The notes under the pieces are model-generated. The model saw only the letters and a list, made by a program, of their open reading frames with translations. It made no database searches and was not told where the DNA came from. A stretch of 8,561 bases of DNA from a virus (lineage: Duplodnaviria > Heunggongvirae > Uroviricota > Caudoviricetes). A program made the position numbers and the translations under genes. Where the stretch lies: IMG/VR virus record IMGVR_UViG_2778261354_000018, positions 1 to 8,561 of that record; one strand, given 5' to 3'. Of this stretch, positions 1 through 6,801 are shown in pieces (positions within the stretch are counted from its first letter, which is position 1; the number at the start of each line of letters is the position of its first letter).

Positions 1-264
1 ATGCTGCCGCAGCATAGCGATATTGAAATAGCCTGGTATGCTTCGATACAGCAGGAGCCGAATGGCTGGAAGACCGTCACCACACAGTTCCACATCCAGG
101 AATTCAGTGAGTATATTGCGCCACTGCAGGATGCTGTAGATCTGGAAATCGCAACGGAGGAAGAAAGATCGTTGCTGGAGGCATGGAATAAATATCGGGT
201 ATTGTTGAATCATGTTGATACAACAGTAGCAGCGGATGTCGAATGGCCAGTAGCCCCACAATAA
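1..264 (+). CDS. tfa: Tail fibre assembly protein (Tfa-like), C-terminal part; 5' end lies outside the window
   Basis: The C-terminal residues ([51 protein letters not shown]) closely match the conserved C-terminus of lambda Tfa / P2 gpG-type tail fibre assembly proteins as I recall them. The ATG at position 1 is probably internal and the ORF is open to the window edge. Stop TAA at 262-264. Confidence 0.8.
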
Positions 265-270
265 AAAGAA

Positions 271-300
271 AAAGCCATCGACAGAAATATCGATGGCTTT
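271..300. terminator. Hairpin between convergent tfa (+) and acetyltransferase (-); likely intrinsic terminator, strongest for the minus-strand transcript
   Basis: Perfect inverted repeat AAAGCCATCGA (271-281) / TCGATGGCTTT (290-300) with an 8-nt loop. On the minus strand the stem is followed by a T-rich run (TTTTCTTTTTATT, complement of 258-270). On the plus strand the tail is only moderately T-rich. Confidence 0.6.
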
Positions 301-307
301 ATGTACT

Positions 308-880
308 CTATTTATACAATACAACACCGCTCTTTTTAGTTATATATGTGCAGTTAGACGGTATATCTTTATTTATGAAGGACATTGCACCAATTTTAAC
401 ATTATCGCCTATGGTGAAACCGGAACCAAGTATAAAACAATGCGCCCCAATGTCCACATTGTTACCAATAATCACGTGGTCATGTTCATTGCATGATTGA
501 CTGCGGCCAATCGTGGTGTTTTGCCTGATTGTTAGATTATCACCGATAATCGCTGTGCTGGTGACAACAATGCCTGTATGATGAAGAATTGTAAGCCCCT
601 TGCCAATTGTTAGCCCAAGGCCAAGATCGCATCCATATTCGTTAAGCAATCTACGATTGATTTTTTTTGCCGCTTTTTTAGTTAATTTACCTCCATGGAT
701 GAACATCTCGTTAGCCAGTCTCCACCAAAAAAGATAATTTCGCGATCGTGATCTTTTCTCTCTTAAAAGCCTCCATATGGTCATATTGTCACGACGTATT
801 ACTTCTGCTTTCCAGAATTTTTTTAAATCAGTAGAGTTTCCAAACAAAACAAAGTGAATAGCCATTAAGTAAGATAACAC
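308..880 (-). CDS. Hexapeptide-repeat (left-handed beta-helix) acetyltransferase, CysE/WcaB/NodL-like; AT-rich moron
   Basis: Tandem [LIV]-G-x-x-x-x hexapeptide repeats (IGDNLT IRQNTT IGRSQS ... IGNNVD IGAHCF ILGSGF TIGDNV KIGAMSF) and an overall WcaB/serine-acetyltransferase-like layout. Stop TAG at 310-308. Start is uncertain: GTG at 880-878 lies 6 nt downstream of an AAGGAG Shine-Dalgarno and is preferred; alternatives are ATG at 865-863 or the ORF-track ATG at 913, which has no SD and sits only about 12 nt from the predicted transcription start. Region is strongly AT-rich compared with the flanking tail genes. Confidence 0.8.
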   Translation of the reverse strand: MLSYLMAIHFVLFGNSTDLKKFWKAEVIRRDNMTIWRLLREKRSRSRNYLFWWRLANEMFIHGGKLTKKAAKKINRRLLNEYGCDLGLGLTIGKGLTILHHTGIVVTSTAIIGDNLTIRQNTTIGRSQSCNEHDHVIIGNNVDIGAHCFILGSGFTIGDNVKIGAMSFINKDIPSNCTYITKKSGVVLYK

Positions 881-931
881 GATAATCTCCTTAATTATTA
901 TTTCAGACCACAAACGTTATAAGGTTAAGAG

Positions 932-960
932 ATTATAAAATCCCGTTATTTGTTATTCAA
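932..960 (-). promoter_or_regulatory. Candidate sigma70 promoter for the acetyltransferase moron
   Basis: Read on the minus strand: -35 TTGAAT (960-955), 17-nt spacer, -10 TATAAT (937-932). Predicted transcription start near 925, upstream of the AAGGAG SD and the GTG at 880. Confidence 0.55.
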
Positions 961-998
961 AAACAATTATCTGATAAGGACAAACAACACTTCACCAT

Positions 999-1020
999 GA
1001 CGCCCTGACATCAGGGCGTC
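999..1020 (-). terminator. GC-rich hairpin immediately downstream of U; possible terminator of the tail operon
   Basis: Inverted repeat GACGCCCTGA / TCAGGGCGTC (999-1008 / 1011-1020), 5 nt after the U stop codon (1028-1026). The downstream U-tract on the minus strand is weak (ATGGTGAAGTGTTGTTTG), so terminator function is uncertain. Confidence 0.4.
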
Positions 1021-1025
1021 TTCAT

Positions 1026-1490
1026 TCACACAAGTACCGAAAGGTTATTAAGCGCCCCTTTAACGTTATTCGCCAGATCGCCAAGTGACGAGGACTGGAG
1101 GCGCTCACGCAAATCTTCATTCACACGCTGAAAGGTCACCGTAAACTCTATCTTCCTGGCCCTGCCATAGCGATCGAGTTCTGAGCGCGTGGTCTGTAAC
1201 GAGGTTATGACGTACATCCCGTAAATCTGCCCGACACCATCAATCAGTGGCCATGGACGCCCCGCATACGCCTGAGTTGTCAGTGCCGTAAGCGAGACTT
1301 CACCGCCTGTTATTTCCGGGTAGAGAAGACCGGAAAGCGTGATGGTATCGTCACCCGCACCGATATACTGCCAGCTTGCCGAGCGGTTGATTCGCTCGTT
1401 CTTTACATGCCGCCAGTTACGGGACTGCTGTATTTGTTGGTGTGGCAGTTTGCTTAGCTGAAAAACAAACATGCCGTAAATCATCATCAT
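1026..1490 (-). CDS. U: Phage tail protein U (P2 gpU family)
   Basis: Translation (MMMIYGMFVFQLSKLPHQQIQQSRNWRH...GAGDDTITLSGLLYPEITGG...) resembles P2 gpU as I recall it. Several clustered starts exist (GTG 1499, ATG 1496, 1490, 1487, 1484). ATG at 1490 is 8 nt after an AGGAG that overlaps the T stop codon (TAGGAG), so it is preferred. Stop TGA at 1028-1026. Confidence 0.85.
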   Translation of the reverse strand: MMMIYGMFVFQLSKLPHQQIQQSRNWRHVKNERINRSASWQYIGAGDDTITLSGLLYPEITGGEVSLTALTTQAYAGRPWPLIDGVGQIYGMYVITSLQTTRSELDRYGRARKIEFTVTFQRVNEDLRERLQSSSLGDLANNVKGALNNLSVLV

Positions 1491-1501
1491 AGCCATCACT
1501 C

Positions 1502-4354
1502 CTAATCACGATCGCGGAAGCTGTTTATGCCACCGGACTGTCTGCGAATTTCTTCACGTACCGCCTCCCCCACCATTCTGGCAAGGTCGCGCGGATTCTG
1601 TGTAACCACGTTATGAAGGTGAACGTGAATTTCCCCATCAAACACAGGCGACGGCGCAGGCGCAGATGCACGCGATGCCGAACCCGATGATGGCGAAACC
1701 GGTGCCCACTGCTTAACCTCCACAGGACGGGAAGTATCCGGGGAAACAACCGGAGACACGGGTGAAAGCGCTGGCACAGGCGGAAGCCCGGGGGCAACAG
1801 TCGGTTCATTCCACTGCCCACGAACGGCCAGCGCGCGGGGGAGATTTTTAAACACGATATCGCCGGGGCCGATACGCTTACGGGCTTCCTGAAGCATACC
1901 CGACGTATTGCCTTCGATACCCTTGAGCCTGCGAAGAACGCCACTGGTACCGTCGTTTATGACAGAAGGCTTGCCGCCATTTTCATCATTACCCCCTTTG
2001 CCTCCCTTATCTCCATTGCCATCAACTGGTTTGGTGATAATGGCATTAACATCACCCTGAAGCAGGGAGAGCTTGCCCTGAAGAAGCGAAGCCCGCTGTG
2101 CATCCTCAAGTTTCCGTCGCGCCCTTTCCGCTTCATCTGGCAACACGCCCAGTTTTTCCAGTACCCAGGCAAGCCCGTCCATCAGCGCCTTCATAGGTGT
2201 AAGTGCGAGCGATATCGCCCCGCTGAGCACGCGACCAAAAGTTTCCCCGGCCGATGTACACCGTTCAAGAGATTCATTACTGGCCTGAACCGGCGTGAGC
2301 AACCGGGTAAACCAGTCGAACACCGTGGACACCGCACCCGATACCAGATCAAACAGCGGCGCAAACTGCGCGATACTTTCACGAACAGGCGCAAGGCCAG
2401 CCCACAGCGCCCGGAATGTGCCGAGCATGAAGGCCTTAACCTGTTCCCAGTGACGCCATATGAGCAGCGCCCCACCGGCAAGGGCAGCAATCACGAGACC
2501 AACAGGACTGAGAAGACCGGCAAGCGCCCCGCCCAGCACCGAAAACGCACCGGATACCATCCCCCACAGTGCCGGAAGTCCGGACAGGCGAAGGACAAGA
2601 CCACTGACGCCGGTTGCAACGGAGGAAAGCCCGCCACCAAGAAGCGCAGAGCCAAGCTGAAGTTTTGCAAAAACCCCCGTCAGCAATCCACCACCGACAG
2701 ACAGCGCGCCTATGGCCGTTGTGGCCGCAAGCACGCCCCCCACGGTAAGGGTCAGTGTGCGTACAAGCTGCGGGTTTTCCTGAATCCACGACCTGAAACG
2801 TTCGCCCACAGAAGCAACAGCCTGTACAAGCTCGCGGATATCATCAGTAACCAGCGACACAACATCACTGCGTATACCGGAGAAGACGCCAGACAGACGA
2901 TCGGCATCACCGCCGAGGTTATCCCGCAGGACATCCCCCATTCGCCGGGCGGTTCCCTGAACCTGTCCCATACGGTCTGATACCGTTGCCAGCGAGCGGA
3001 GAAAATCCGGGATCTGGTCAACGGCAAGATCTTCAATGGGTGTGCCGAACAGCGCTATCGCCGCATTAGCCCGTTCTGCCGGATCCTGAATCTTCAGCAG
3101 CCCGGCAGCCGTTCGCTGCATTGCCTCGCGTGCAGCTGCGCCTCCGCTGGCAATCGCTGACGACATTCTTTCAGCGTTAAGACCAATCATCTCATAGGCT
3201 TCAACGCTTGCTTTGGACATATCCGAACCGCGAATACTGAATTCCTTGACGGCATCGCCGGTTTTATCCAGGGCGAATTTTCCCTGCTGTGCCATGCTGA
3301 CAAGCAGCGTCATGGTTTCAGAGCCGGAAAGCCCCATATTGCGGAAGTGCGTGGAATACTCATGCAGAATTTCAGGAAGTTCAGCGCGCATTTCGGCAGA
3401 CATTTTCTGCATCCCTGCCGCCATCAGGTCGACCGCCTCCCCGGCATTTGCGGCAAGCCCGTTTTTCAGCATGATTCCGGCAGCCTGAACCTGTTCAGCC
3501 ACACTACCGCCGGTGACCTGAGCAAGATCCAGCGCCTGCCGTGTCACCCGTTCGAGCTCTTCAGTCCCCACCGTACCCAGTGAGCCAAGCGTGCTTTGCG
3601 TCGCAGCTGCCGCCTCTGAAATCATCGCAATATCCGTTGCAACACCCGACGCCCGGATATTCTGAATCATCCGGCTGTAGCGCTGCCCGTCATCCGCACT
3701 GCCGCCACTCTGTGCCGCAATAAGCGCGCCCTGCCGTTGCTCTTCAACAACAGGCGCAACCGCATGTCCGGCGGCGTACAGACCAGCACTGCCCGCCGCC
3801 ATGGCAAACGCTCCGCGCTGGCTTAGTTTACCGGCGATATCATGAACACGATCGTAACGTTGCTGTGCCTGCGTGACGCGCGAAAGCTGAGCCTGCTGGC
3901 GTTCAAGCTGATCGTTGTATTCCTGCGTTCGCCTGATTGCTTCCTCCACAGCGCGGTTACTTCCGTCAGCCCGTATGCCGTGGGCTTCCAGTTCGCGACC
4001 GGCCTCCCGTAATCGGGACTGGTGAAGGGAGTACACAGTATTAAGGCGCTCAACCTTTGCGGTCAGCGCCCGGAGAGTTTCCTGCTGCTTTTCCGTCAGT
4101 GCTGTGCCGGTGCGCTGTGCTTCCTGAAGGCGCTGAAGTCGCGCACGCGCATCATTCAGACTGTTTTCAGTCGAAGCGACCTGCTGACGGGCACGGGAAA
4201 ACGCATCACTGCTTCGCTGGAGTGACTTAAGCGCGTTCTGTGTGGACGAAAGGGATTCAGAAAGCGCGCCGGTCATTTCCCGGGCGCGCCTGACAGGTTG
4301 AGTGAGACGGTCGACCGCAGTGAGGGCTACACGTATCTGGAGATTATTACTCAT
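1502..4354 (-). CDS. T: Tail tape measure protein (P2 gpT family), about 950 aa
   Basis: Long ORF with coiled-coil-like N-terminal region, central Gly/Ala-rich hydrophobic segments and a Pro/Ser-rich C-terminal region, sitting between E/E' and U as in P2. Start placed at ATG 4354-4352 (MSNNLQIRV...), which overlaps the end of the E' frame (gATGAGTAA). The ORF-track start at 4408 is an upstream in-frame extension. Stop TAG at 1504-1502. Confidence 0.9.
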   Translation of the reverse strand: MSNNLQIRVALTAVDRLTQPVRRAREMTGALSESLSSTQNALKSLQRSSDAFSRARQQVASTENSLNDARARLQRLQEAQRTGTALTEKQQETLRALTAKVERLNTVYSLHQSRLREAGRELEAHGIRADGSNRAVEEAIRRTQEYNDQLERQQAQLSRVTQAQQRYDRVHDIAGKLSQRGAFAMAAGSAGLYAAGHAVAPVVEEQRQGALIAAQSGGSADDGQRYSRMIQNIRASGVATDIAMISEAAAATQSTLGSLGTVGTEELERVTRQALDLAQVTGGSVAEQVQAAGIMLKNGLAANAGEAVDLMAAGMQKMSAEMRAELPEILHEYSTHFRNMGLSGSETMTLLVSMAQQGKFALDKTGDAVKEFSIRGSDMSKASVEAYEMIGLNAERMSSAIASGGAAAREAMQRTAAGLLKIQDPAERANAAIALFGTPIEDLAVDQIPDFLRSLATVSDRMGQVQGTARRMGDVLRDNLGGDADRLSGVFSGIRSDVVSLVTDDIRELVQAVASVGERFRSWIQENPQLVRTLTLTVGGVLAATTAIGALSVGGGLLTGVFAKLQLGSALLGGGLSSVATGVSGLVLRLSGLPALWGMVSGAFSVLGGALAGLLSPVGLVIAALAGGALLIWRHWEQVKAFMLGTFRALWAGLAPVRESIAQFAPLFDLVSGAVSTVFDWFTRLLTPVQASNESLERCTSAGETFGRVLSGAISLALTPMKALMDGLAWVLEKLGVLPDEAERARRKLEDAQRASLLQGKLSLLQGDVNAIITKPVDGNGDKGGKGGNDENGGKPSVINDGTSGVLRRLKGIEGNTSGMLQEARKRIGPGDIVFKNLPRALAVRGQWNEPTVAPGLPPVPALSPVSPVVSPDTSRPVEVKQWAPVSPSSGSASRASAPAPSPVFDGEIHVHLHNVVTQNPRDLARMVGEAVREEIRRQSGGINSFRDRD

Positions 4355-4894
4355 CGTTATGATTCCCGGCTCTGGCAGCCGCCCGCTCTCGCCAGGCAAC
4401 AACCTCACCAGGACTCATACCGAATATCTCTGCGGGCGACCAGTTAAAAACAACAGCGATATCAGCAACAAGCTCTTCGATATCGTCAAACAGGAGGCGA
4501 ATTACATCACACCCGTATTCATCTTTTTCTTGCCGGGCAAGGCCTTCGGCGCGAAAAAATGCGTGGCCGCCGTGGAAAGCGCCCCGAAATCCTCCGTGCG
4601 CATGGTCGACAACTCCGCTTCAGTGAGACGGGGCTCTGTAACACGAGCGAGATAAACGCACATCGCGTTAAAGTTCAGGTTGTACAGGTGAGCCAGAGAC
4701 AGACCACGCAGCGAACCACTCTGACGGGCACGCTCGCCAATCTTCACATGTGTAATAATCTGTTCGCCACGGATGACCGGGTTTGTTAATTCAATGAGCT
4801 CACCGTTATAGGCAACCTCATTACCATCAGCAGCATCGAAGTCGTCGACGTTATCAGCACCGACAACCGGCATTTCGTTTTGTTTTTTTGACAT
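4347..4894 (-). CDS. E': E+E' fusion made by programmed -1 ribosomal frameshift (tail assembly chaperone, long form)
   Basis: After the slippery site, the -1 frame stays open for about 68 codons (RAEGLARQEKDEYGCDVIRLLFDDIEELVADIAVVFNWSPAEIFGMSPGEVVAWRERAAARAGNHNDE) and ends at TAA 4349-4347, overlapping the T start codon. Frame arithmetic is consistent with a -1 shift. This mirrors the E/E' arrangement known in P2 and the G/GT arrangement in lambda. Confidence 0.65.
4502..4894 (-). CDS. E: Tail assembly chaperone E (zero-frame product)
   Basis: Position between FII and T matches P2 gene E. AGGAG Shine-Dalgarno 9 nt upstream of ATG 4894-4892. Contains the slippery heptamer T_TTT_TTC near its 3' end. 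Stop TAA at 4504-4502. Confidence 0.75.
   Translation of the reverse strand: MSKKQNEMPVVGADNVDDFDAADGNEVAYNGELIELTNPVIRGEQIITHVKIGERARQSGSLRGLSLAHLYNLNFNAMCVYLARVTEPRLTEAELSTMRTEDFGALSTAATHFFAPKALPGKKKMNTGVM
4553..4559 (-). other. Slippery heptamer T_TTT_TTC (X_XXY_YYZ) for the E/E' -1 frameshift
   Basis: Minus-strand codons CAT TTT TTC (4561-4553) in the E zero frame. Plus strand reads gaaaaaa at 4553-4559. Confidence 0.6.
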
Positions 4895-4939
4895 CGTGAA
4901 ATTCTCCTGGCGGCCACACGACCGCCGTCAGTCAGTTAA

Positions 4940-5452
4940 TCAGCCAAGCCCCAGCATGGAGCGGGTGCGGTCAGGCAACACATCCTTGCCATCAACGCGC
5001 CAGATGAAGTTCAGCACGTCGATTTCAATAACATCGCTGTTATCAACGCTGAGCTTGTACCAGGTGCATTTCATCGCGTAGGTATGTTCGGTATCCTCAC
5101 CCTGTTTGGCTTCGCCCTTGTCGATTTCGACAATGCGCCCACGGGCTTCAATATCGACGTACTCAATACCCTCTTCGGAATAGTATTCACCCGAGAAGCG
5201 CACACGTACCGCATCAATTCCGGCAGCATATTTGGCAAAGATGTGACGGTCCACGCCGCCAACCGCAAAGGAGAGATCCAGCGCACCGTCATCAAGACCG
5301 AGATCCACCGCCGCAGAGCCTGGCATACCCGCACCGCGATACGCTTCAGTCTTGCGGGTCAGCTTGGGCGGAGTGAAGGAGGTCACCTTACCCAGCTTGT
5401 TGTCACCGTCCACAAAGACGGTAAACACACGAAGTTTTTTTGGCACAGCCAT
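4940..5452 (-). CDS. FII: Tail tube protein (P2 gpFII family)
   Basis: Translation (MAVPKKLRVFTVFVDGDNKLGKVTSFTPPKLTRKTEAYRGAGMPGSAAVDLGLDDGAL...KQGEDTEH...) resembles P2 FII. GGAGG SD about 7 nt upstream. Its ATG (5452-5450) overlaps the FI stop TGA (5454-5452) as TGATG-type coupling. Confidence 0.9.
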   Translation of the reverse strand: MAVPKKLRVFTVFVDGDNKLGKVTSFTPPKLTRKTEAYRGAGMPGSAAVDLGLDDGALDLSFAVGGVDRHIFAKYAAGIDAVRVRFSGEYYSEEGIEYVDIEARGRIVEIDKGEAKQGEDTEHTYAMKCTWYKLSVDNSDVIEIDVLNFIWRVDGKDVLPDRTRSMLGLG

Positions 5453-6648
5453 CAGTTACCTCCTCCCAGAGATGCAAAAGCAGAACTGAAGAACTCGTCA
5501 GTAAACGTCTGATAAAGTTCCATGCACTCCATAGGCGGAACGGGGGTGTATTTGTAGCGAATACGCACAATACCCTGACGAAGGCTGGTTGTGTCGTTGT
5601 CGATGATATCGAACCAGCATTCCGCCCCGATAAGTTTTCCGGCCGTGACCAGCGCATCCAGTTTTGCCTTGATAGCGCTGATCGCATCCTTCGCGTTGGC
5701 TGGCGTCAACGGTGAATCAACCACCTGAAGCTGCGCCTCTGCGATAGTATCAGCCAGTTGTTGCGAGGTACGGGTGTACACCTCAAAGGTATATTCCGAC
5801 GTATCCGGCGTACGGTTACCCCAGAAACGGAAGGAGCCGTCACCCTGGTGAATAAGCGTGGTCACTTCGCTGTTATTCAGCGTATTGGCATCGCTGTTTT
5901 CATCCTGAAGCGACCAGGAGACAGGCACTGATAACCCAAGAACATTTTTCACAGGCATGTTGGAAAGCGAACGATGCCAGCCCTGTTCGTGGTCCAGTCG
6001 GGCACGAAGGCCGCACGCATACGCCGCAGCAGGGAACGTTTCGTTTTTACCTGACACCGGGTTGAAGGCGATAAAATCAGGCCACAGAAGCATGATTTCA
6101 CGCCCGGAAACCTTTTTGCGGAATGCAATGGCATCAGACGGTTTTGTGCAGCCGGGGCAGCCGGAGTACGCAAAAGCACGCATCTTTCCCGCCACCGTCA
6201 CTAGTGCCGCCGTAACGGCGTCAGATTCAAGGCCGGGCGCGGCAAGAATGCGCGGGCGGTAACCAATACCTTCCATCTGTTCAGCAACAAGAAAGGCCTG
6301 CATCCCTGAATAGCTGCCGTCTTCTTCCGTGGTACCAATGACAAGCTGATCCTGCGTTTTGTTTTCCGGGCCTTCCTGAGCTGCCGCCACGCGAACGACA
6401 ATTACCCGGGTGCTTACCTGGTCAGAAATAGCCTTAAGAGACTTGTAAAGGGTACCTGTTTCCCCGGCCTTGCCCAGAACCGAAGATACGCGGGTAAGCA
6501 GTACCGGCTTGTTAAGAGGGAACTGTTCGGCATCCGCATCATCTGCAACGGCAACAATACCAATGACGCTGGAATCAACGTCATTAATTGCCGTCACCAG
6601 GTCGGTATTTTCCCTGACGCGCACACCGTGAAATCGTGTTTCAGCCAT
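5452..6648 (-). CDS. FI: Tail sheath protein (P2 gpFI family)
   Basis: Translation (MAETRFHGVRV...DADAEQFPLNKPVLLTRV...GLRARLDHEQGWHRSLSNMPV...FRFWGNRT...YKYTPVPPME) resembles P2 FI sheath protein throughout. Start placed at ATG 6648-6646, preceded by GGTGA at 5-nt spacing. In-frame alternatives are ATG 6660 and GTG 6663. Confidence 0.9.
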   Translation of the reverse strand: MAETRFHGVRVRENTDLVTAINDVDSSVIGIVAVADDADAEQFPLNKPVLLTRVSSVLGKAGETGTLYKSLKAISDQVSTRVIVVRVAAAQEGPENKTQDQLVIGTTEEDGSYSGMQAFLVAEQMEGIGYRPRILAAPGLESDAVTAALVTVAGKMRAFAYSGCPGCTKPSDAIAFRKKVSGREIMLLWPDFIAFNPVSGKNETFPAAAYACGLRARLDHEQGWHRSLSNMPVKNVLGLSVPVSWSLQDENSDANTLNNSEVTTLIHQGDGSFRFWGNRTPDTSEYTFEVYTRTSQQLADTIAEAQLQVVDSPLTPANAKDAISAIKAKLDALVTAGKLIGAECWFDIIDNDTTSLRQGIVRIRYKYTPVPPMECMELYQTFTDEFFSSAFASLGGGN

Positions 6649-6723
6649 ACGATTCACCATCACTTGTGTTTAATCTCGCCTGAATAATCCACTACTGGCG
6701 GGCAGCCTTCACGTGATGCGGGT

Positions 6724-6741
6724 TGTGTGGATTTTTTTACA
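6724..6741. promoter_or_regulatory. TGT-N12-ACA dyad resembling the Ogr/Delta activator site of P2-type late promoters, in the divergent FI/D intergenic region
   Basis: TGTgtggatttttttACA at 6724-6741. Its centre (about 6732) is roughly 55 bp from plausible transcription starts in both directions: about 6788 for D, with a -10-like GATGAT at 6776-6781, and about 6677 for FI. A single match of this short motif could occur by chance, so this is a candidate only. Confidence 0.4.
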
Positions 6742-6801
6742 ACATAGCCGGACAGAAACGACAGGGTACGCGTGGGATGATACGCACACGGGAGGGGCAT
6801 C

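Follow-up and report, generated by a model that had tools for sequence, protein, structure and literature searches.

An 8,561-nt window at the tail end of a P2-like Escherichia coli prophage (IMG/VR record IMGVR_UViG_2778261354_000018, positions 1 to 8,561) contains an AT-rich island, positions 265–1025, between the gene for tail fibre assembly (tfa) and the tail operon. To judge by its sequence, this island is a single-gene moron, i.e., a piece of foreign AT-rich DNA with its own predicted constitutive-type sigma70 promoter, ribosome-binding site (RBS) and terminator. The modelled structure of the product is that of a soluble left-handed beta-helix (LbH) acyltransferase with a shortened version of the architecture of serine acetyltransferases (SATs). 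There is about an even chance that it is a trimeric, acetyl-CoA-dependent O-acetyltransferase that acts on a sugar of an envelope glycan at the cytoplasmic face, changing the receptor or the serotype of the lysogen. The gene is common in prophages and has been catalogued but not characterised, and it probably belongs with the phage-borne enzymes of glycan tailoring or lysogenic conversion.

Composition and signals of the island

A first-pass annotation of this DNA, made from the letters alone, had described an AT-rich island between GC-rich flanks that holds one gene, a near-consensus promoter and a terminator hairpin, and each of these elements was recovered. The GC content is 0.369 in 265–1025 and 0.379 in the coding sequence, compared with 0.555 in 1026–8561, and at third codon positions (GC3) it is 0.36 in the acetyltransferase gene and 0.56–0.66 in the tail genes. 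The proposed site between tfa and the tail operon also held, as the island is the exact interval from the stop codon of a tfa open reading frame (ORF) on the plus strand to that of gpU on the minus strand. However, this tfa is an 87-aa fragment, and the tail-operon neighbour is the operon's 3' end. The features of the island and its borders are:

1–264, plus strand: C-terminal fragment of tfa, 87 aa (Caudo_TAP; PHROG 2341 at 8.9e-57), the left border of the island
300–271, minus strand: intrinsic terminator, a 13-bp stem then a U-run (UUUUUCUUUUU on the minus strand), which closes both the acetyltransferase gene and the convergent tfa ORF
308–880, minus strand: SAT-like LbH acetyltransferase gene, 190 aa, GTG start at 880, stop codon included; the single credible gene of the island
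892–887, minus strand: RBS AAGGAG, 6 nt before the GTG, read from the sequence and identical in the homologous loci L003 and L008
960–932, minus strand: predicted sigma70-type promoter TTGAAT-17-TATAAT (-35 at 960–955, -10 at 937–932), with 10/12 consensus matches the best of the region
997–1020, minus strand: GC-rich hairpin just past the gpU stop (-18.6 kcal/mol, z = -4.4), a weak end of the tail operon
1026–1499, minus strand: gpU tail protein, last gene of the inverted FI-FII-E-T-U operon (PHROG 76 at 1.5e-69; Phage_P2_GpU in locus L004), the right border of the island

The GTG at 880 was taken as the start because database homologues are 190 aa long, the copy in P1-like elements has an ATG at the same position, and AAGGAG lies 6 nt upstream. 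The gene is co-oriented with the tail operon and convergent with the tfa ORF. Nine promoter-like matches occur in the AT-rich stretch against 3.7 expected by chance, and TTGAAT-17-TATAAT is the best of them. Since both of its hexamers, their spacing and the RBS are unchanged in L003 and L008, where the protein is only 70% identical, the candidate promoter is more than a chance match; the promoter stretch is 88–96% identical against 44–72% for the middle of the gene. No TGT-N12-ACA late-activator site was found near it, and as the only intergenic one in the window is far away, at 6724–6741, the promoter is seemingly not Ogr-dependent.

The terminator has a folding energy of -18.8 kcal/mol (z = -5.0), a value that 0 of 200 shuffled sequences matched, and it is 94–98% identical in the homologous E. 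coli and P1-like loci. The hairpin at 997–1020 has no U-run on the minus strand, and the terminator scan did not report it as terminator-like. With the acetyltransferase gene on the gpU strand and downstream of both gpU and this hairpin, late transcription of the tail operon may read through into it.

Comparison with four homologues gave dN/dS values of 0.05–0.13, with dS saturated, and an ORF of at least 185 aa is intact in 75 of 76 homologous loci. These comparisons indicate that the gene is under purifying selection and selectively maintained. Across 201–950, identity to the common E. coli allele is 94–98% over the 3' end of tfa, the terminator and the last ~90 nt of the gene, 44–72% in the centre of the gene (401–800), and again 88–96% over its 5' end, the RBS and the promoter. 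As this profile is mosaic, the catalytic core seems to have been exchanged between conserved ends, which is consistent with recombination among alleles. That the divergent centre encodes different acceptor specificities is speculation.

The same mosaic, with near-identical ends shared with tfa, would also be expected of a passenger that has no current benefit and is moved by the recombination that exchanges tail-fibre and tfa cassettes. The tfa fragment and a methyltransferase moron stacked at the site (see below) show that recombination there has been repeated. The low dN/dS and the intact reading frames point the other way, as do the exact retention of promoter and RBS and the persistence of the gene in a degraded prophage of O157:H7 that is riddled with insertion sequences (IS), and we regard mere carriage as highly unlikely.

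Fold and active site of the gene product

The hexapeptide-repeat acetyltransferase domain read from the sequence was confirmed by profile search and modelling. The protein scored 37.7 bits against the Pfam model Hexapep (PF00132; cut-off 27), and residues 13–190 aligned to positions 3–181 of the 185 in PHROG 2154, a family of unknown function (E = 2e-70). An earlier AlphaFold model, built from an alignment of 23 sequences, had a pLDDT of 72 in the LbH part and gave no significant fold match; this was resolved with 112 sequences (pLDDT 95.2, pTM 0.89). In the resulting model, five helices (residues 2–82) precede a beta-helix with short strands (84–179). Two motifs are specific to the family, FLFWWRLANEM in helix 4 and RQNTTIG in the beta-helix. 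The 50 best matches of the model in a PDB fold search were all SATs (TM ~0.72, E down to 1.8e-9), as were the best matches in a PDB sequence search (5e-15, or 7e-24 with a profile). No close relative was found in a search of the viral folds in BFVD, where the best TM was 0.37.

SATs are therefore the closest solved structures by both sequence and fold, and databases give the protein the name of serine acetyltransferase. A genuine serine O-acetyltransferase would be an auxiliary metabolic gene, whose O-acetylserine would raise cysteine production or induce the CysB regulon in the lysogen. The active site was compared with that of the SAT of Neisseria gonorrhoeae (NgSAT), in which His162 and Asp147 form the catalytic dyad, and Asp96, Asp161, Glu170, Arg196 and His197 make up the remainder of the site (PMC8786284). 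Of these, Asp96 and Asp161 hold serine by its amino group and Arg196 by its carboxylate (PMC8786284). The dyad is retained here: His100, which aligns with NgSAT His162 in the HMMER alignment, is invariant in the 112 family sequences, and its partner Asp85 is Asp or Glu in all 23 sequences aligned at that position. In contrast, the counterparts of Asp161, Glu170 and Arg196 in the same alignment are Leu99, Ser108 and Asp134. His197 is retained as His135 but is not conserved across the family.

Other features of SATs are also missing. The N-terminal domain has ~80 residues compared with ~140 in SATs, and no Pfam match to SATase_N was found in the protein. The C-terminal tail of SATs, which ends in Ile, binds CysK; the C-terminus is variable in this family and ends here in Tyr-Lys, without a conserved tail of that kind. 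The scores against curated models lie far below their cut-offs, at 76.8 bits for the CysE equivalog TIGR01172 (cut-off 210.65) and 49 for PRK11132 (397). Given the replaced serine-binding residues and the missed cut-offs, the database name probably reflects fold similarity only. We conclude from the sequence that the acceptor is probably something other than serine, and a true SAT is thus considered very improbable, despite the shared fold and catalytic pair.

The closest named models were not reached either. EpsC (NF041874) ranked first among NCBIfam models with 91 bits (cut-off 150), none of the top models was reached, and WcaB gave 57.2 bits with TIGR04016 (cut-off 194.65) and 56.7 with PRK10191 (196). 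The enzyme had been described as CysE/WcaB-type in the first-pass annotation; by the curated models the protein is not a member of CysE, WcaB or EpsC. The likeness to CysE (TIGR01172; PDB 6WYE and 1T3D) consists of the helical N-domain joined to an LbH domain and the same Asp/His pair. WcaB is a SAT-like enzyme of colanic acid synthesis that acts on glycan intermediates at the cytoplasmic face. With WcaB and EpsC the protein shares its size class (~150–190 aa) and, presumably, chemistry on glycan intermediates at that face. It differs from them in its own motifs and in being encoded by a stand-alone prophage gene, not within a colanic acid (wca) or exopolysaccharide operon.

Variable cargo, relatives and proposed function

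The region downstream of U was examined in 79 viral contigs with gpU 72–93% identical, and the content of the slot between U and tfa was counted in the 67 that extend at least 1.5 kb beyond U. U is followed directly by tfa in 18 contigs, by the acetyltransferase gene and then tfa in 5, and by other cargo in 32; the other 12 have no recognisable tfa. PhiR44_2, a plaque-forming phage, likewise lacks the gene. As had been proposed, the gene is a true moron and not a conserved core gene: its own promoter and terminator and its deviant composition go together with its absence from some relatives, and the cargo varies among related prophages. The nearest complete tfa is convergent with U in every contig with tfa downstream, so the inversion of the FI–U block seems typical of the lineage. 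The other cargo found in the slot includes:

DNA invertase with alternative fibre tips: 11 contigs
GT9-like proteins: L228 (5598–6833), L233, L250 and L248
Lipopolysaccharide (LPS) N-acetylglucosaminyltransferase: L191, 5775–6932 (NF012028, 678 bits against a cut-off of 618)
Acyl_transf_3 acyltransferase: L194, 5923–7062
SASA-domain protein: L181, 6032–7120
NleG effector; DUF1353 proteins

The island had been equated with the accessory locus Z/fun of P2. This stands for the position relative to tfa: as with fun(Z), which follows the tfa gene G in P2, the acetyltransferase gene is the first after tfa, convergent with it, non-essential and variable among relatives. It does not stand for the borders, since the P2 slot lies between G and FI and the present one between the tfa fragment and gpU, with its cargo co-oriented with the tail operon. 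Nor is fun(Z) an acetyltransferase by its annotation, which was the sole basis on which the two were compared. The Z/fun hotspot of P2-like phages has been described as mixed-purpose, with fibre swaps, invertases and other cargo (10.1101/2024.10.15.618418), which matches the variety found in the U–tfa slot. The work of Rousset et al. (2022) concerns the other P2 hotspot, and no acetyltransferase is mentioned in it (PMC9122126).

A site of this kind might equally hold a protective gene that acts outside surface glycans, by acetylating a phage component or a signalling metabolite, or by detoxification in the manner of LacA, Maa, Vat or CatB. P2 fun(Z), in the equivalent place, blocks T5, and the post-tfa region of P2-like phages includes defence genes (10.1101/2024.10.15.618418). 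The protein has weak matches, at the level of the LbH domain, to LacA, Maa and Vat, but it falls far short of the cut-offs of the xenobiotic-acetyltransferase models (17 bits with Vat, where 300 is required; 37 with LacA, where 347 is), and the anti-phage models of PADLOC-DB v2 gave 0 families at E <= 1. The neighbours of the homologues and the alternative cargo of the slot also suggest glycan synthesis, not defence islands. A protective role of this sort is considered unlikely.

The acetyltransferase had further been seen as the only cargo at the site, and as an unusual one; neither view could be upheld. Beyond the left end of the window (L004, 10617–12244) lie a second moron, for a class-I S-adenosylmethionine methyltransferase (222 aa, on the acetyltransferase strand), and a full tfa. 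A full-length tfa has ~192 codons, of which the ORF at 1–264 comprises the last 87 only, and the ORF matches the tfa families PHROG 105, 188 and 136 in their C-terminal parts only. The same ORF is called as an 87-aa Caudo_TAP gene in L004–L006, with a full tfa of 194 aa further on, and in the sister genome L007 a complete tfa of 192 aa directly precedes the acetyltransferase gene, with no fragment. From these arrangements, accessory genes have evidently been stacked at the site by crossovers within tfa. In the prophage of E. coli Z1323HEC0300, the tfa before the acetyltransferase homologue is separated from the tail fibre gene by a gene for a macro-domain protein (L003, 7671–8573).

As to the cargo being unusual, a homologue that spans 80% or more of the island was found in 529 of 5426 complete E. 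coli genomes, and a match of any extent in 533, so that about one in ten carries the gene family. The homologue nearly always lies convergent with a tfa. Among the sites, 66 are on plasmids. The carriers include O157:H7, where the gene lies in the IS-ridden, degraded P2-like prophage, other Shiga-toxin producers, and P1-like phage-plasmids, where it lies between tfa and the remnant of an alternative tfa. In the report on JL22, a P1-like plasmid, the authors describe the presence of the gene as unexplained (PMC9603915), and no functional study of the family was found in the literature searched.

A convergent Caudo_TAP tfa lies within 60 nt in 68 of the 76 viral-contig homologues with room downstream, a sample that is redundant, and Gilliamella has the same arrangement in a myovirus prophage not of the P2 type, at a protein identity of only 45%. 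A tie to tfa throughout the family was nevertheless rejected, on de-replication and on the finding that with one genome per species tfa is adjacent in only 3 of 79 loci. The sequences suggest a wider accessory family of which a few clades, that of the window included, live in phage tail-fibre regions. In Gilliamella sp. wkB112 (L013, 5001–7207), two distinct LbH acetyltransferase genes are each convergent with a tfa of their own.

The tight adjacency to tfa in P2-like, P1-like and Gilliamella phages would be explained if the enzyme served the virion, with the tail fibre, the fibre chaperone or some other structural protein as its target for acetylation in lytic growth. The co-orientation with the tail operon and the possible late read-through would suit such a role. 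On the other hand, the gene is missing from most close relatives, including a plaque-forming phage of the same layout, it has its own sigma70-type promoter without a late-activator site, and most clusters of the family are chromosomal with no phage genes nearby. Action on proteins is not known for LbH enzymes. The chance that the enzyme works on the virion is therefore held to be very slim.

Where the neighbours of chromosomal homologues are informative, they are surface-glycan genes. Downstream were found NeuB/SAF (6), GT9 (2) and GT17 (2), and upstream kinases of the WaaP/Kdo family (5) and sulfatase/DUF3413 proteins (3). In Halopseudomonas, the homologue lies between an MsbA-like transporter and an operon of pseudaminic-acid type (NeuB-GNAT-GT28-aminotransferase).

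Three observations argue for a glycan role: the nearest named relatives, EpsC and WcaB, are exopolysaccharide acetyltransferases, the chromosomal homologues keep glycan-biosynthetic neighbours, and LPS-modifying enzymes fill the same slot in sister prophages. In the O-acetyltransferase function proposed at the outset, the protein would form the usual LbH trimer and use acetyl-CoA. In the lysogen it would O-acetylate a sugar hydroxyl of a glycan during its assembly at the cytoplasmic face of the inner membrane, with possible extra expression late through read-through from the tail operon. The leading candidate for the acceptor is the LPS core or an O-antigen unit, and other lipid-linked glycans are possible. 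Fibres of the P2, P1 and Mu types bind LPS, and the LPS core is attractive as acceptor because the gene is linked to the chaperones of such fibres. The modified surface would alter the receptor for phages whose fibres use the same type of chaperone, and it would be expected to exclude superinfecting phages, to lower the re-adsorption of progeny and perhaps to convert the serotype.

Several points weigh against this proposal. The O-acetylases with which phages modify LPS are mostly Acyl_transf_3 membrane proteins and not LbH enzymes, and H-NS often silences AT-rich islands, so that expression in the lysogen is not assured. Most enterobacterial chromosomal homologues lie in uninformative contexts, and PADLOC gave no match. 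In the de-replicated set, tfa is adjacent in only 11 of the 80 clusters formed at 90% identity and in 5 of the 52 at 70%, so the link to the fibre is limited to some clades; even there it could reflect co-transfer by recombination within tfa, not shared function.

Among known systems, the closest functional analogue is NeuO, the LbH O-acetyltransferase of the K1 polysialic acid capsule, which is carried by prophage CUS-3 and affects phage resistance (PMC13001214). A prophage-borne, acetyl-CoA-dependent LbH O-acetyltransferase that acts on a surface glycan and alters phage susceptibility offers the best analogy for how the present gene probably works. The two differ in that NeuO belongs to another LbH branch and is missing from the best 60 matches of this protein in the PDB sequence search. 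They also differ in host phage, CUS-3 being P22-like and the present prophage P2-like. Finally, NeuO is phase-variable through 5' repeats, and no tandem repeats or tract-length variation were found in the acetyltransferase locus. An A8 tract at 660–667 (coding strand), in a KKAAKK segment, was considered as a source of NeuO-like phase variation and rejected, as it is allele-specific and of equal length in all four sequenced copies.

The Acyl_transf_3 O-acetyltransferases of phages (Oac of Sf6, OafA) are similar in effect, being lysogenic-conversion enzymes that acetylate LPS sugars and block adsorption, and a gene of this family fills the U–tfa slot of the related prophage L194. As integral proteins of the membrane they work from its periplasmic side, and their fold and topology differ entirely from those of the soluble LbH enzyme modelled here.

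A broader reading can be offered tentatively, and is itself rather unlikely: the short SAT-like enzymes may be an unrecognised class of phage receptor-masking enzymes, soluble LbH O-acetyltransferases that act from the cytoplasmic side on the LPS core or another lipid-linked glycan. Coupled to fibre and chaperone cassettes in P2-like, P1-like and other myoviruses, they would let fibre specificity and self-protection move together, and their divergent centres would correspond to acceptor specificities.

If acetylation of a surface glycan is correct, some of the differences between strains in serology and in sensitivity to phages would be explained. The membrane acetylases and glucosyltransferases known from temperate phages would be joined by a soluble LbH type, and recognition of the receptor and its modification would turn out to be coupled in the tail-fibre hotspot of P2-like phages. 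If it is not, a prophage gene that is common and well conserved bears a wrong name in the databases, which is still worth correcting.

Layout of the window and prophage

Beyond gpU, the window contains the remainder of the tail operon and the end of the prophage:

1502–4408, minus strand: tape measure T
4502–4894, minus strand: E
4940–5452, minus strand: tube FII
5452–6663, minus strand: sheath FI
6802–7947, plus strand: D
7989–8291, plus strand: ogr
8421–8561, plus strand: hok/gef-family toxin ORF at the prophage end, adjoining serS in the source genomes

An Rfam scan of the window found no family at threshold, Sok included, and a tRNA scan of it was also empty. Draft assemblies of E. coli are 97.6–98.7% identical across the whole window, and the prophage in them adjoins serS. 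The window's own copy of the island was found in none of the complete RefSeq genomes of E. coli, where tail operons are up to ~89–90% identical and copies of the island 71–77.5%. A megablast search with the tail operon against deposited phages gave no close named relative, with only 74–76% identity over gpU.

Relative to P2, the genes FI-FII-E-T-U form an inverted block, while D and ogr stay on the plus strand; phage PhiR44_2 has the same layout. Because of the inversion, it is the 3' end of the tail operon that the acetyltransferase gene adjoins, with both on one strand. No inverted repeats were found at the borders of the FI–U block. The only intergenic TGT-N12-ACA (Ogr-type) dyad lies within 6664–6801, midway between the starts of FI (6663) and D (6802) and ~70 nt from each. 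From this position, a single activator site may serve two divergent late promoters, those of FI and D.

Elsewhere in the same prophage, outside the window (L004, 17940–19868), a gene between the lysis genes and gpR encodes a 642-aa protein with the domains DUF1737, SASA (carbohydrate acetylesterase) and DUF6645, which we take to resemble the NanS-p esterases of Stx prophages. The prophage thus has both an acetyltransferase and an acetylesterase.

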